DNA of 36,774 nt from Candidatus Micrarchaeota archaeon (GTDB lineage Archaea > Micrarchaeota > Micrarchaeia > Norongarragalinales > UBA97). The translations under genes were made by a program, and so were the position numbers. Each line of letters starts with the position of its first letter. Position 1 is the stretch's first letter. The stretch is from contig JBBSWX010000052.1 in NCBI GenBank assembly GCA_038046065.1, forward strand, positions 1 through 36,774. Reading direction: 5' to 3'. The notes below the pieces were generated by a model. The model saw nothing but the letters and a program-made list of their open reading frames with translations, had not been told where the DNA came from and ran no database searches. This document shows, one piece after another, positions 5,346-8,867 of the stretch.

Positions 5346-5725
5346 AGGGTTTCTTGCTTTCCACGGACGGGCTGCTGGCGCTCCTAATCGCCACCGCGGC
5401 TTTCTACGTAGTAATAATGCCGCACGACGGGGGTTACGCGCGGCTTTACGCACGCCAGGCCATTGCGCGCGATTATCTCGACATTCTCGCGTCAACCAAT
5501 TCTTCCGTAACGCCGGAAGAGTTTTCCGGCGTGGCGCTCGCGCTGGTTTCCAACGTCGCCCCTGCTTCGGGCGAGTGGCTTGGTGTAGAGAAGTTCGTCT
5601 ACCCGCGGCCAGCAGGCTGCGCGAATTCATCAGCCTGCTCTTTTTCCAACTCTAGTTCCGCGGGGGGCTATTTGCGGGTTCAAGACATCGTTTCGAGTTA
5701 CGTTAACCGGGCGTGGGTGCAATGA
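5342..5725 (+). CDS. class III signal peptide protein (pilin-like)
   Basis: GTG start, MKG/FLLSTDGLLALLIATAAFYVV. GGTGA lies 10 nt upstream. N-x-S/T sequons and Cys occur in the C-terminal part. Confidence 0.6.
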   Translation: MKGFLLSTDGLLALLIATAAFYVVIMPHDGGYARLYARQAIARDYLDILASTNSSVTPEEFSGVALALVSNVAPASGEWLGVEKFVYPRPAGCANSSACSFSNSSSAGGYLRVQDIVSSYVNRAWVQ

Positions 5726-6258
5726 GGGGCTTCGCTTCCATCATAATCGCGGCAATGGTTCTCGCCCTTTCGGTGGCTACTGTCGGAATGCAGCTCGCTG
5801 CGGGCGCGGAGCTAGATTCGCTGAACGCCAAGTTCGAGGCTGACCAGGTGGGCTGGAGGCATGCGGACGCGCGCGCCTTCTATTCCGCTGCCGTCACGGA
5901 CGTGGTTGTCGACTCGGCTTACTACGCGTGCGGCTGCGGCGTGAACGCGCCATCCAACTTCAACAATTCCTTGGCGGCGCTCTTGCCAATTTACTTCCAG
6001 AACTCATCCCGCGCCCTATCTACGCGCGCCGTCACGGTGAACGCCTCGCTCTTGGGGCTTCCATCAGTGGGGCTGGGAAGCTGCAATTCCACCTTCAGCT
6101 TTTCATTCAACTACACCGTTACGGCCAACTCGTCGAACGCCCGCAAGTTTTCAGTGGTGAACGAGTCGCGCGCAGTAACGCTCTTCAAGAACTCCACCGC
6201 GCTCGCCGTGAACGCAACTGGCGGCATTCCATTGCGGCTAATCGTCACCTGCGGGTAG
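5722..6258 (+). CDS. class III signal peptide protein (pilin-like), heavily sequon-decorated
   Basis: ATG 5722 (inside track ORF 5713..6258) gives MRG/FASIIIAAMVLALSVATVGM. I counted nine N-x-S/T sequons by hand. Confidence 0.6.
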   Translation: MRGFASIIIAAMVLALSVATVGMQLAAGAELDSLNAKFEADQVGWRHADARAFYSAAVTDVVVDSAYYACGCGVNAPSNFNNSLAALLPIYFQNSSRALSTRAVTVNASLLGLPSVGLGSCNSTFSFSFNYTVTANSSNARKFSVVNESRAVTLFKNSTALAVNATGGIPLRLIVTCG

Positions 6259-6280: not shown

Positions 6281-6290
6281 TTTTAAATAA
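6281..6290 (+). promoter_or_regulatory. TATA box for the Tyr-rich protein gene
   Basis: TTTTAAATAA sits in an AT-rich spacer about 60 nt upstream of ATG 6352. GGGGGG lies just before the start codon. Confidence 0.45.
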
Positions 6291-6351
6291 GTAACTGCAT
6301 AGTAGTAACATTAAATAGTTGTTTGGCGGCCGTGTGGCCGGGGGGATTCCA

Positions 6352-7146
6352 ATGTCGCTTTCCAAGATTGCCGGGCTTGCCGGCGTTGCCGTGTCCGTTC
6401 TTTTGCTTTTGGCTGCGTTCACCCCCACTGCCGGTGCGTACACGCCTGCAGCGTTCTCGCATGCTAGCGCTTCTCAAATCTCCAACGTGCGTGGCGCTAA
6501 CGGCTATTACTCTCCCTCTTTCAGTGACATGAAGTTCGCCAGCAACCCTTGGCAGGCTGGCAAGAGCATCTGGTGCGACGGTGGCCAGAGCAAGTACCGC
6601 TCGGGTTGCGTGGGCAGCGATTATTATGATTACGGCTCGTGGTCGCAGAACGGCTATTGCAGCGCGAAGGTATCTCACAACGACTACCGCTGCACTGGCG
6701 GCGTGTACGCCTACCCGTCAACTTCGGGCAGCTACGATTCGGGCAACTACGATTCGAGCCGCTACAGTTCCGGCACTTATTCCTCGCCTCGCGCTTCCGA
6801 CTCGAGCTTCGATTACTTCCAAAGCGGTTCAGGCAGTTCCAGCGCTTCGGGTTACGCCCGCACTGACTTTACTGGCGGCATAAGTAACAACTTCAACTCG
6901 TACTCTTACGTCAACTCGTTCAATGAGGATTCGTTCAACACCAATACTTACTCTTACGACTACAACGATGGCTATGGCAACTACGGCTATGGAAATTGCG
7001 GTTACGGCAACTGCGGGTACAGCAACTGCGGTTATTACGGCTGTGGCAATTCCTACTACTCGCTTGCGCCTTACTCGTACGCGTACTACTCGTACTCCGG
7101 CTATTCCACCAAGCCGTCCTATTACCTTTACTATTACCGCAGCTGA
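6352..7146 (+). CDS. secreted Tyr/Gly/Ser/Asn-rich low-complexity protein with GYGN(C/Y)GY repeats
   Basis: ATG 6352 gives the signal peptide MSLSKIAGLAGVAVSVLLLLAAFTPTAGA/YTP. The C-terminal half reads ...DGYGNYGYGNCGYGNCGYSNCGYYGCGNSYYSLAPYSYAYYSYSGYSTKPSYYLYYYRS. Confidence 0.7.
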   Translation: MSLSKIAGLAGVAVSVLLLLAAFTPTAGAYTPAAFSHASASQISNVRGANGYYSPSFSDMKFASNPWQAGKSIWCDGGQSKYRSGCVGSDYYDYGSWSQNGYCSAKVSHNDYRCTGGVYAYPSTSGSYDSGNYDSSRYSSGTYSSPRASDSSFDYFQSGSGSSSASGYARTDFTGGISNNFNSYSYVNSFNEDSFNTNTYSYDYNDGYGNYGYGNCGYGNCGYSNCGYYGCGNSYYSLAPYSYAYYSYSGYSTKPSYYLYYYRS

Positions 7147-7192: not shown

Positions 7193-7212
7193 TTTTTTCA
7201 AAAGGGGTTTTT
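7193..7212 (+). terminator. oligo-T tracts (archaeal-type terminator)
   Basis: cgTTTTTTcaaaaggggTTTTT lies about 45 nt after stop 7146. Confidence 0.3.
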
Positions 7213-7237
7213 AAGAGCCCGCAACTAACAGGTACGC

Positions 7238-7639
7238 GTGACAATTTCTTCCCGCCGCCCCACGGGTCTTAAGGTCGTAGTGGTGCTTTCCGGCGTGCAA
7301 GGCGTGCTTTCAGTGCTGGCCGGCGTGCTTGTGCTGCTTTTGGCAATAGCCGGCTCGTCGGTTTCCGGCGTGTTCGGCTCCATCGGCGGTGACTTGGCAG
7401 TAGCGGTTGTGGGCGTCGTTGGCGCGGCGTTGTTCGCGCTTGGCACAATTTTTCTGCTGCTTGGCCTCGTGCGGTTGTTTGCCGCGTGGGGCTTGTGGAG
7501 GCTGGCCGCCTGGGCGCGTTTGCTTGAGTCAACGTTGGCGGTGCTTTCGCTTTTTAGCCCTCCGTTGGGTTCGCTGATGGCGGTTGTCGAGCTTTACTTT
7601 CTTTGGGTAGACCCTGCCACGCGCAGGCTTTTCGATTGA
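7238..7639 (+). CDS. membrane protein, 3-4 helices, unknown function
   Basis: GTG start. Hydrophobic segments include VVVVLSGVQGVLSVLAGVLVLLLAIAG and AVAVVGVVGAALFALGTIFLLLGLV. Confidence 0.5.
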   Translation: MTISSRRPTGLKVVVVLSGVQGVLSVLAGVLVLLLAIAGSSVSGVFGSIGGDLAVAVVGVVGAALFALGTIFLLLGLVRLFAAWGLWRLAAWARLLESTLAVLSLFSPPLGSLMAVVELYFLWVDPATRRLFD

Positions 7640-8281: not shown

Positions 8282-8351
8282 GCAACGCGCAGTTTTCTGC
8301 AATGCGCAATTTCCTGCAACGCGCAATTCTTTCGCAATGCGCAATCGTTTT
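8282..8351. repeat. four tandem 17-18 nt direct repeats, GCAAYGCGCARTTYYYY
   Basis: gcaacgcgcagttttct / gcaatgcgcaatttcct / gcaacgcgcaattctttc / gcaatgcgcaatcgtttt, ending at a TTTTAAG box about 25 nt before ATG 8376. Confidence 0.7.
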
Positions 8352-8375
8352 AAGCCGCGGCTTCCTCAGTTACTT

Positions 8376-8867
8376 ATGAAGGTGGCGTTGGTAGTATTCG
8401 CGTTGGCATTCATAGCCGCCAGCCTTGCCGCGGTTGACTGTCTTGACTCCAGTTATTCGGGCGTGTGCGTTCTTTCCGAAGCGCCTTCCGACGACCTAGC
8501 ACAGCTTGCAGTTAAATACGTTGGAAAATTACGGTATTATTACGGTGGGACTGATCTTGAGCGCGGAGTTGATTGCTCTGGTTTCGTGCAGCAGCTTTAC
8601 TTGCAGTCGCGCGGAAGCCGCCTTAGCCGCACTGCCGCAAGCCAATTTAACGACAAGCGTGGCATTCTCGTGAACAAGAACCAACTTCAATCGGGCGACC
8701 TCGTATTTTTCAAAAACACTGGCAGCCGCAAAGGCATTACGCACGTAGGCATTTTCTTGAGCGGCTGTAACTTTATTCACGCCCCCGGTACGGGTAAGAA
8801 AGTTTCTTACGGCAACTTTTGCAGCCCGTACTACCGCGAGCACTATGCAGGCGCGCGCCGGGTGTAG
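8376..8867 (+). CDS. secreted NlpC/P60-family cell-wall endopeptidase
   Basis: Signal/anchor MKVALVVFALAFIAASLAAV. Catalytic Cys in GVDCSGFVQQLY and His in GITHVGIF, plus NFIHAP. The track start 8337 lies inside the repeat array, so ATG 8376 is preferred. Confidence 0.85.
   Translation: MKVALVVFALAFIAASLAAVDCLDSSYSGVCVLSEAPSDDLAQLAVKYVGKLRYYYGGTDLERGVDCSGFVQQLYLQSRGSRLSRTAASQFNDKRGILVNKNQLQSGDLVFFKNTGSRKGITHVGIFLSGCNFIHAPGTGKKVSYGNFCSPYYREHYAGARRV

Follow-up and report, generated by a model that had tools for sequence, protein, structure and literature searches.

The SPEARE proteins of Nanohaloarchaeota, whose description is attributed to Hamm et al. 2019, are reportedly giant, membrane-anchored surface proteins of DPANN (Diapherotrites, Parvarchaeota, Aenigmarchaeota, Nanoarchaeota, and Nanohaloarchaeota) archaea, with variable distal modules. 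In the surface layer (S-layer) of Sulfolobales, which is built of SlaA and SlaB, the outer subunit is held by a membrane-anchored stalk subunit. Repeats rich in Gly and Tyr, in some cases also in Cys, are characteristic of the high-Gly/Tyr (HGT) keratin-associated proteins, silk-moth chorion, and schistosome eggshell, and mussel foot proteins are Tyr-rich adhesives. A Tyr-rich protein is reported at the cell surface of the diatom Amphora (PMC4220933), and the oocyst and sporocyst wall proteins of Eimeria are reported to be cross-linked via dityrosine (PMC4776368). The S-layers of Micrarchaeota are glycosylated, and the possibility that they are anchored by a second stalk subunit has been raised (bioRxiv 10.1101/2021.04.28.441871). 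Here we describe a gene for an extremely Tyr-rich protein at positions 6352-7146 (+ strand, as are all its features given below) of a 36,774-nucleotide (nt) stretch of DNA, referred to as the window, from the tiny groundwater organism Candidatus Micrarchaeota archaeon (contig JBBSWX010000052.1). For touching hosts, partners, or minerals, DPANN archaea have no visible tools other than their surface proteins, and almost none of these proteins has a known binding module or known regulation.

Results of our sequence analysis indicate that the gene at 6352-7146 is real and conserved and that it encodes a secreted protein of two parts, a Cys-rich head and a Tyr-rich tail. There is, in our estimate, an even chance that this protein is the split-off head-plus-neck subunit of a surface giant and is held at the surface by its Tyr-rich tail. 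The frame is open for 264 codons plus the stop. Its N-terminus, MSLSKIAGLAGVAVSVLLLLAAFTPTAGA/YTP, reads as a Sec signal peptide with an n-, an h-, and an AxA-type c-region (residues 1-29, 6352..6438; cleavage probably after AGA), contains neither a Cys lipobox nor a class III motif, and has an equivalent hydrophobic leader in every homolog. The mature part of 235 amino acids (aa) comprises 50 Ser (21.3%), 42 Tyr (17.9%), 30 Gly (12.8%), 19 Asn (8.1%), and 8 Cys (3.4%; residues 75, 86, 103, 114, 216, 221, 226, and 231), and only 11 residues of Ile, Leu, Val, and Met together. The preliminary description of this gene had put Tyr at roughly one mature residue in six and Cys at eight, which agrees with the counts (1 in 5.6, and 8), and had quoted the C-terminus exactly. 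The TATA box (TTTAAATA, 6282..6289), the run of six G residues (6340..6345), and the signal peptide that it ascribed to a secreted-protein gene can all be read in the sequence; the G run lies 6 nt before the ATG, is Shine-Dalgarno-like, and presumably functions as such. With 15.3% of Tyr (leader included), the protein ranks first among the 3,305 open reading frames (ORFs) of at least 80 aa in its own genome (an assembly of 0.84 Mb, 71% complete), the runner-up having 10.8%.

An exhaustive phmmer search over 1.84 billion representatives gave P0002 as the only true homolog over the full length, a protein of 294 aa with 40% identity in the mature part (E 3e-13), and a profile of the two sequences found a third full-length member of 291 aa in genome G004 (OIO26692.1, 'hypothetical protein', from Ca. 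Micrarchaeota archaeon CG1_02_55_22). The search for homologs in related archaea that the preliminary description had envisaged thus yielded two full-length orthologs. The three orthologs share 30-40% identity and keep the frame, both ends, and the order of motifs: common to them are the signal peptide, the core C..SKY..[AG]CVG..YYDY ... C.A...ND.RC, the tail motif I.NNF.S..Y.NSFN.DS.N, and the ending PS(Y/F)Y.YYYRS-stop. Word-indexed searches with the protein and with the two-sequence profile returned nothing beyond the query and P0002. A search of 40 relatives with the single protein gave no match, the G004 ortholog and the giants described below having surfaced only with the profile, and scans of genome and metagenome contigs with back-translated patterns of the full-length alignment gave none either. 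The third phmmer match, P0003, a protein of 616 aa with 8 matching stretches, was discarded as an artefact of tandem repeats, only 10 of 28 residues being common per stretch. On a codon model trained on the long ORFs of the genome, the annotated frame is the best of six, and with a synonymous-codon score of 0.092, equal to the mean of the genome (0.096 +/- 0.067), the gene is native and coding.

The head (residues 46-118, 6487..6705) is a Cys-rich beta domain with the core C..SKYRSGCVGSDYYDY...C.A...ND.RC. These residues match a profile of eight head sequences with E 1.5e-20 and 73.5 bits, the core SKYRSGCVGSDYYDY being present. Among 401 genomes sampled in the phylum, 11 contain an N-terminal match to the head profile (E 1e-19 to 1e-35), one copy per genome, and all of them belong to one order (families f1, f11, and f2); the named records are Ca. 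Micrarchaeota metagenome-assembled genomes (MAGs) from groundwater and one Ca. Norongarragalinales MAG. In an alignment of 12 head sequences, the cysteines C4, C5, C7, and C8, with which Cys 75, 86, 103, and 114 of the window protein align, are invariant (12/12). Of the others, C1 and C2 are jointly absent in 2 of the 12, and C3 and C6 are jointly present in 7 and jointly absent in 5; being present or absent together, the members of each pair follow the pattern of disulfide partners. The window protein and P0002 lack both optional pairs. AlphaFold2, run with the 12-sequence alignment, predicts a small, mostly beta head with a mean predicted local distance difference test score (pLDDT) of 72, and the identity of heads among the orthologs is 27-44%. 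A Foldseek comparison of the head model with the PDB gave no match (best E 6.2), the PDB sequence search gave only chance matches to nanobodies, and the Pfam runs on the ORF, its orthologs, and the head assigned none of them to a family. The earlier statement that the protein belongs to no known archaeal surface family therefore holds as regards Pfam, PDB, and fold matches, but its head and its promoter place it in a family of Micrarchaeota proteins. The head may be a binding module for a partner cell or surface.

The context in which the head occurs in families f11 and f2 is that of type-I membrane proteins of 1,532-1,965 residues. From the N-terminus, they consist of the head, a neck rich in Tyr, Pro, and Gly, small CGNGYCEYGE..C..DC modules, CarboxypepD_reg immunoglobulin (Ig)-like repeats (E 1e-16), and a C-terminal transmembrane segment that is followed by a basic tail. 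The head is thus the membrane-distal tip of a surface giant. The window protein contains neither the Ig-like stalk nor the C-terminal anchor in the same polypeptide, and is therefore a short variant rather than a typical member of the family. In the same genome, outside the window, a stalk giant ORF is present on contig C35 (6187-9045), where it runs off the contig end. Its product of at least 953 aa has a signal peptide and four CarboxypepD_reg stretches and is headless; its best matches in genomes G020 and G050 are the head-bearing giants, and the reverse is also true. Headless orthologs of the C35 protein are encoded in G004 (1,903 aa) and G001 (1,405 aa). The occurrence of a short head gene and a headless stalk gene in family f1 indicates that head and stalk are encoded apart there.

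The two genes in question are also linked by their promoters. Downstream of the TATA box of the window gene lies a 19-nt promoter-proximal element, GTAACTGCATAGTAGTAAC (6291..6309), with two GTWAC boxes 14 bp apart, which is unique in its own genome at up to 3 mismatches. TATA box and element together have the form TTTAAATA-N4-6-ACTG..A.AGTAGTAAC, and the order-wide consensus of the element is GTWACTGYANAGTAGTAAC / CTTGTWACTGYANAGTAGTAAC, with the same spacing of the two boxes. Of the 12 head genes, 11, among them both short and giant ones, have a TATA box at equal distance together with ACTG..A.AGTAGTAAC, and in most of them 0-20 nt separate the end of the element from the start codon. Although GTAGTAAC occurs 20 times in the genome, its combination with a TATA box occurs only twice, ahead of the window gene and ahead of the headless CarboxypepD_reg giant (C35 6182-6210). 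A G-rich leader similar to that of the window gene is also found at the C35 gene. The headless giants of G001 and G004 carry the element as well, the latter with one mismatch.

A search of the 68 genomes of the order with the pattern TTTAWAWA-N12-14-GTAGTAAC gave 44 sites in 37 genomes, one or two per genome, and the reversed pattern, used as a control, gave 0. Positions that the pattern leaves free are conserved too (A at -16 in 42/44, C at -15 in 43/44). Nearly all ORFs behind the element have a signal peptide and a Cys/Tyr-rich N-terminus, the heads differing completely between families; the regulatory signal is conserved where the tip varies. At loci L042-L071, the heads behind the element are of the types ...CSPGQLCDATGQTCTYY... 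(f6), ...CTPGARGGAGDQYCGSF... (genera g25 and g23), and ...YSHYCYYDAYGFYVCSPY... (f8, Tyr/Cys-rich), and at sites L061 and L067 the element precedes small membrane proteins instead. Because of its location between the TATA box and the start, the element would act at the DNA level, as an operator or an extended core promoter; a role in RNA structure was rejected, as the element, in most members of the family, ends about 30 nt from the TATA start, that is, upstream of, or at, the start of transcription.

The start codon of the window gene deserves a comment in this respect. An alternative, in-frame TTG is present at 6319, but the alignment of signal peptides with P0002 favours the ATG at 6352. 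The TTG lies 9 nt after the element, in the position of the near-leaderless start of relatives, and about 33 nt with the G6 run separate it from the ATG, which is why the window gene seems to have gained a Shine-Dalgarno leader. Public gene calls for this gene include both 264 and 270 aa.

These observations are consistent with the following course of events. A giant would have been split in family f1, with the window gene keeping the promoter, the signal peptide, the head, and a Tyr-rich tail, and a second gene (that on C35, with orthologs in two relatives) keeping the promoter element, the signal peptide, and the Ig-like stalk. The two genes would be co-regulated via the TATA-proximal element, most likely as the predicted site of a transcription factor. 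The head-plus-tail protein would be exported by Sec and stay unglycosylated, and its tail, above all the conserved C-terminal peptide, would keep it non-covalently at the cell surface, with the headless stalk or the S-layer as its support, and the head would in this way be displayed as a putative binding module for a partner cell or surface. It is the complementarity of domains and the shared promoter that point to the association with the stalk. In its most far-reaching form, which we find doubtful, the main spike of the whole order would be the product of a conserved and specifically regulated gene with an exchangeable head. In f1, that spike would come in two pieces, its sugar-free head docking on the headless stalk via a novel type of docking signal, the disordered Tyr-rich tail with its ending ...PS(Y/F)Y.YYYRS, and one dedicated factor, bound to a palindromic GTWAC-N9-GTAAC operator, would switch on both genes.

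Several points weigh against this subunit view of the window protein. The head seems to be a previously uncatalogued disulfide-bonded domain without known fold or ligand, and instead of an operator the element may represent a strong core promoter. At its N-terminus, the C35 protein is longer by about 500 residues in comparison with the fused giants, and the stalk genes of f1 are not simple C-terminal complements of the latter. Tandem paralogs exist, since genomes of genus g20 carry two element sites each, and the history may have been one of fission or of duplication followed by complementary truncation, 'truncated paralog' being as good a term as 'fission'. The idea that the tail is the neck of the giants was rejected, as their alignment (z 0.3-3.2) does not rise above composition-matched shuffles; the likeness of the two is thus compositional only. 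Finally, of the 7 species representatives of family f1, only 2 yielded the short form, to which one Logan contig can be added; the short form is either dispensable or often unassembled.

A second candidate for the missing stalk, the giant encoded upstream at L002 and in G004, was also discarded, as it has no similarity to the fused giants and is, unlike them, rich in N-glycosylation sequons. Genome G046 encodes another short head protein (L013 4651-5520; 290 aa) with a lipobox (LIIGC) and a different, Cys-rich C-terminal half; its gene lacks the signature promoter element, and the congener G047 has a fused giant of 1,571 aa with the element. The G046 form would be a second, independent shortening in this family.

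The window gene matches roughly the N-terminal 15% of the fused giants, occurs only here and there in its family, and evolves fast (30-40% identity, vs. 57-78% for the neighbouring methyltransferase), as might be expected of an evolutionary remnant, i.e., a truncated copy of a giant persisting without a function of its own. Such a remnant would hardly have kept, in three diverged genomes, an intact frame with the same stop, together with native codon usage, a promoter and a terminator, the invariant Cys and the core motif, the order of residues in the tail, the avoidance of sequons, and a C-terminal motif of 70-82% identity, and we regard this explanation as very improbable.

The tail (residues 119-264, 6706..7143) is a region of 146 residues with 23% Ser, 22.6% Tyr, 13% Gly, 9.6% Asn, and only 4 aliphatic residues. 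Tandem Repeats Finder detected two 15-nt tandem repeats in it, one of 2.9 copies encoding SGSYD/SGNYD units (6723..6765) and one of 4.4 copies encoding GYGN(C/Y) with the four Cys of the tail (6970..7035), the latter being the repeats that the preliminary description had pointed out. The only Pfam hit of the ORF, to PF01469 (Pentapeptide_2), is confined to the GYGNC array and is below threshold (15.5 bits, E 0.016, with a gathering cut-off of 26.4 bits). Two motifs stand out, namely ISNNFNSYSYVNSFNEDSFNTNTY (6880..6951), which is largely conserved in all three short orthologs, and the C-terminal YSGYSTKPSYYLYYYRS-COOH (7093..7143), in which 12-14 of 17 residues are identical among the three. 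At 70-82% identity, these last 17 residues are the best-conserved stretch of the whole protein. In tail-to-tail alignments of the orthologs z reaches 8-13, and none of 300 composition-preserving shuffles attains the score; because every shuffle is exceeded, the tail is under a constraint on the order of its residues and not subject to mere compositional drift. An AlphaFold2 model of the whole protein has no secondary structure in the tail (pLDDT about 30), and the tail is thus predicted to be intrinsically disordered.

A tail of this kind might drive cross-beta or hydrogel association, in which case the protein would be a self-assembling glue, an amyloid-like matrix, or a cross-linked sheath. 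It would then serve as a holdfast or as the matrix of a biofilm, the head being accessory, and dityrosine or disulfide bonds would possibly fix the assembly. Together, Ser, Tyr, Gly, and Asn account for 68% of the tail, the mature protein contains seven [GS]Y[GS] triplets, and the tail resembles prion-like or FUS-like low-complexity domains and Tyr-rich adhesives, which would fit with its predicted disorder. The NSFN/DSFN motifs are conserved, the full avoidance of N-glycosylation sites discussed below would suit close packing, and amyloid-forming prion-like domains of archaea have been reported (bioRxiv 10.1101/2020.07.20.212902). However, the numbers of tail Cys in the three orthologs are 4, 2, and 0, so that disulfide cross-linking of the repeat region is not a feature of the family. 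Laccase, tyrosinase, and dye-decolorizing (DyP) peroxidase (PF07732, PF00264, and PF04261) were not found in the 71%-complete genome, the tyrosinase search having matched no control genome and carrying little weight.

The best-conserved parts are the folded head and one C-terminal peptide, which speaks for specific binding more than for a bulk material; moreover, there is a single gene copy, and the promoter shared with the stalk gene would be left unexplained. We therefore consider a self-assembling material unlikely, a weaker explanation than that of a surface-held subunit but one compatible with it. Of the adhesive or cross-linkable role initially proposed, a sticky or adhesive function of the Tyr-rich part stays plausible, and disulfide cross-linking is weakened by the lack of conservation of the four tail Cys. 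Enzymatic dityrosine cross-linking has no genomic support, as none of the three oxidases was found in the 71%-complete genome, but oxidants of a host or the environment may still bring about cross-linking of Tyr.

Despite their richness in Asn, Ser, and Thr, the mature proteins of all three orthologs contain no N-x-S/T sequon, against 4.6-5.5 in shuffled sequences (P 0.001-0.003 for each), and a gene for STT3/AglB is present in the genome. Sequons are more frequent than expected by shuffling in the pilin-like protein encoded at 5713-6258 of the window (9 observed, 2.4 expected) and in the giant adjacent to the ortholog at L002 (67 vs. 26), and less frequent than expected in the fused giants of G050 (0 vs. 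15) and G020 (9 vs. 16). These contrasts with neighbouring proteins show that selection against N-glycosylation characterizes this gene family, to an extreme degree in the tail. The mature part of the G050 giant (L014 1917-6617) is 1,535 residues long and has zero sequons where 15.3 +/- 3.5 are expected. Two classes of giants, glycan-free and glycan-coated, appear to coexist in these archaea.

The C-terminus of the window protein, ...STKPSYYLYYYRS, has no hydrophobic helix and hence no tripartite signal of the archaeosortase type (PGF-CTERM and relatives), and the 264-aa protein, which ends with YYYRS, contains no transmembrane segment. The protein could instead be a soluble secreted factor that is released and acts remotely. 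It might compete for, or serve as a decoy of, the ligand that the giants bind, be a signal, or be the precursor of a Gly/Tyr-rich, antimicrobial-like peptide. Its small size and the lack of a membrane anchor, lipobox, or archaeosortase-type C-terminus are compatible with this, and the lipobox (IIGC) of the short form in G046 indicates that anchoring was solved differently there and may be absent from the window protein. Yet a freely diffusing protein would not be expected to have a sticky tail and so well conserved a peptide at its C-terminus, the signature promoter is also found at the stalk gene, which suggests that the two products are used jointly, and no protease-processing motifs were seen in the protein. 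A soluble factor seems to us decidedly unlikely.

The preliminary description placed the gene immediately after a pilin operon and proposed that its product works with the filament. The position itself was given correctly, as class III signal-peptide genes and an A24 prepilin peptidase gene lie upstream, and the last pilin-like gene, on the same strand, ends 93 nt before the window gene. This proximity is what speaks for a pilus accessory, either a tip adhesin or a sheath acting together with the class III (type IV pilin-like) filament encoded upstream. The window gene, however, has its own TATA box and conserved element, its signal peptide is of the Sec type and not of class III, and its ORF gives no match to PF04021 (archaeal type IV pilin, class III), which the upstream genes do match. 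Oligo-T (T6, 7193..7198) resembling an archaeal terminator follows 47 nt after the stop, and a TATA-like TTTTTAAG (7208-7215) lies ahead of the next gene. Both orthologous loci likewise have a TATA box ahead of the gene and T-runs directly behind its stop, so the gene is monocistronic. Pilin genes are found upstream only in the window, the place upstream being taken at both other loci by a sequon-rich giant and a Ser/Thr-rich, membrane-anchored protein. The gene is thus its own transcription unit in a pilin neighbourhood that is not conserved; the link to the filament is positional, and a pilus accessory is the least probable of the explanations considered here. This corrects a tempting assignment of the protein to the adjacent pilus operon.

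Conservation is seen on the other side of the gene: all three orthologs sit directly upstream of a gene for a GCD14-type transfer RNA (tRNA) methyltransferase, the products of which are 57-78% identical. One or two genes further downstream, the three genomes encode a small secreted protein (window 8337-8867, L002 7727-8248, L012 4974-5507) with a homologous N-terminus, i.e., a signal peptide followed by C.D.(S/T)(Y/F).G(V/I)CV. Its body is of the NlpC/P60 type in the window and of the Peptidase_M23 type at L002, and has no Pfam match in G004, which looks like a swapping of catalytic domains onto one conserved leader. The gene adjoining the Tyr-rich one (7238-7639 of the window) encodes a small multi-pass membrane protein with only a weak match to DUF2127; a homolog is located at L013 3108-3518, near the short lipoprotein form of the head protein of G046, and none is present at the corresponding place at L002 or in G004.

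A compact, uncatalogued, probably disulfide-bonded head at the tip of an order-specific giant offers a testable handle on contacts of these archaea. The natural split isolates this head together with a 146-residue, Tyr-rich, and presumably glycan-free tail, in a protein small enough for work on binding and self-assembly. The 19-nt element, occurring once or twice per genome across the order, marks a set of genes and, for uncultivated archaea, is one of the few candidates for a specific cis-regulatory site. As to the partner of the head, Norongarragalinales are described as metabolically rich, possibly less host-dependent, and able to make nearly all amino acids (PMC12892359), and for that reason the partner need not be a host cell.

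The comparison with Tyr-rich structural proteins of eukaryotes is one of composition. The window protein is similar to HGT proteins, chorion, and eggshell in its GYG(N/C)GY-type repeats, its high content of Tyr, Gly, and Ser, and its scattered Cys, but it is not homologous to them, it is prokaryotic and extracellular, the Cys of its repeats are not conserved, and it has a folded N-terminal domain and a C-terminal motif. With the Amphora, Eimeria, and mussel proteins, it has in common that it is secreted, very Tyr-rich, and of low complexity, which makes sticking to surfaces plausible, although there is no homology and no oxidase for Tyr cross-linking or for the formation of 3,4-dihydroxyphenylalanine (DOPA) was found in the 71%-complete genome. 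The likeness of its tail to prion-like and FUS-like domains, with which it shares an abundance of Ser, Tyr, Gly, and Asn, a scarcity of aliphatic and charged residues, predicted disorder, and [GS]Y[GS] triplets, extends to composition and predicted disorder only, the tail being extracellular and almost free of Gln.

Closer parallels are provided by the surface systems of archaea. As in the giants of other DPANN archaea, the head in the sister families tops type-I proteins of 1,500-2,000 aa with Ig-like repeats, and the N-terminal heads vary between families of the order while the promoter and the general layout stay. Unlike those giants, the window protein is a head with a Tyr-rich tail and has no stalk, anchor, or enzyme module, the stalk being encoded by a separate gene, and its family is sequon-poor and not heavily glycosylated. 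With SlaA and SlaB, there is no similarity of sequence or domains; nevertheless, the proposed logic would be alike, namely, that of an unanchored secreted subunit carried on a separately encoded, membrane-anchored stalk.

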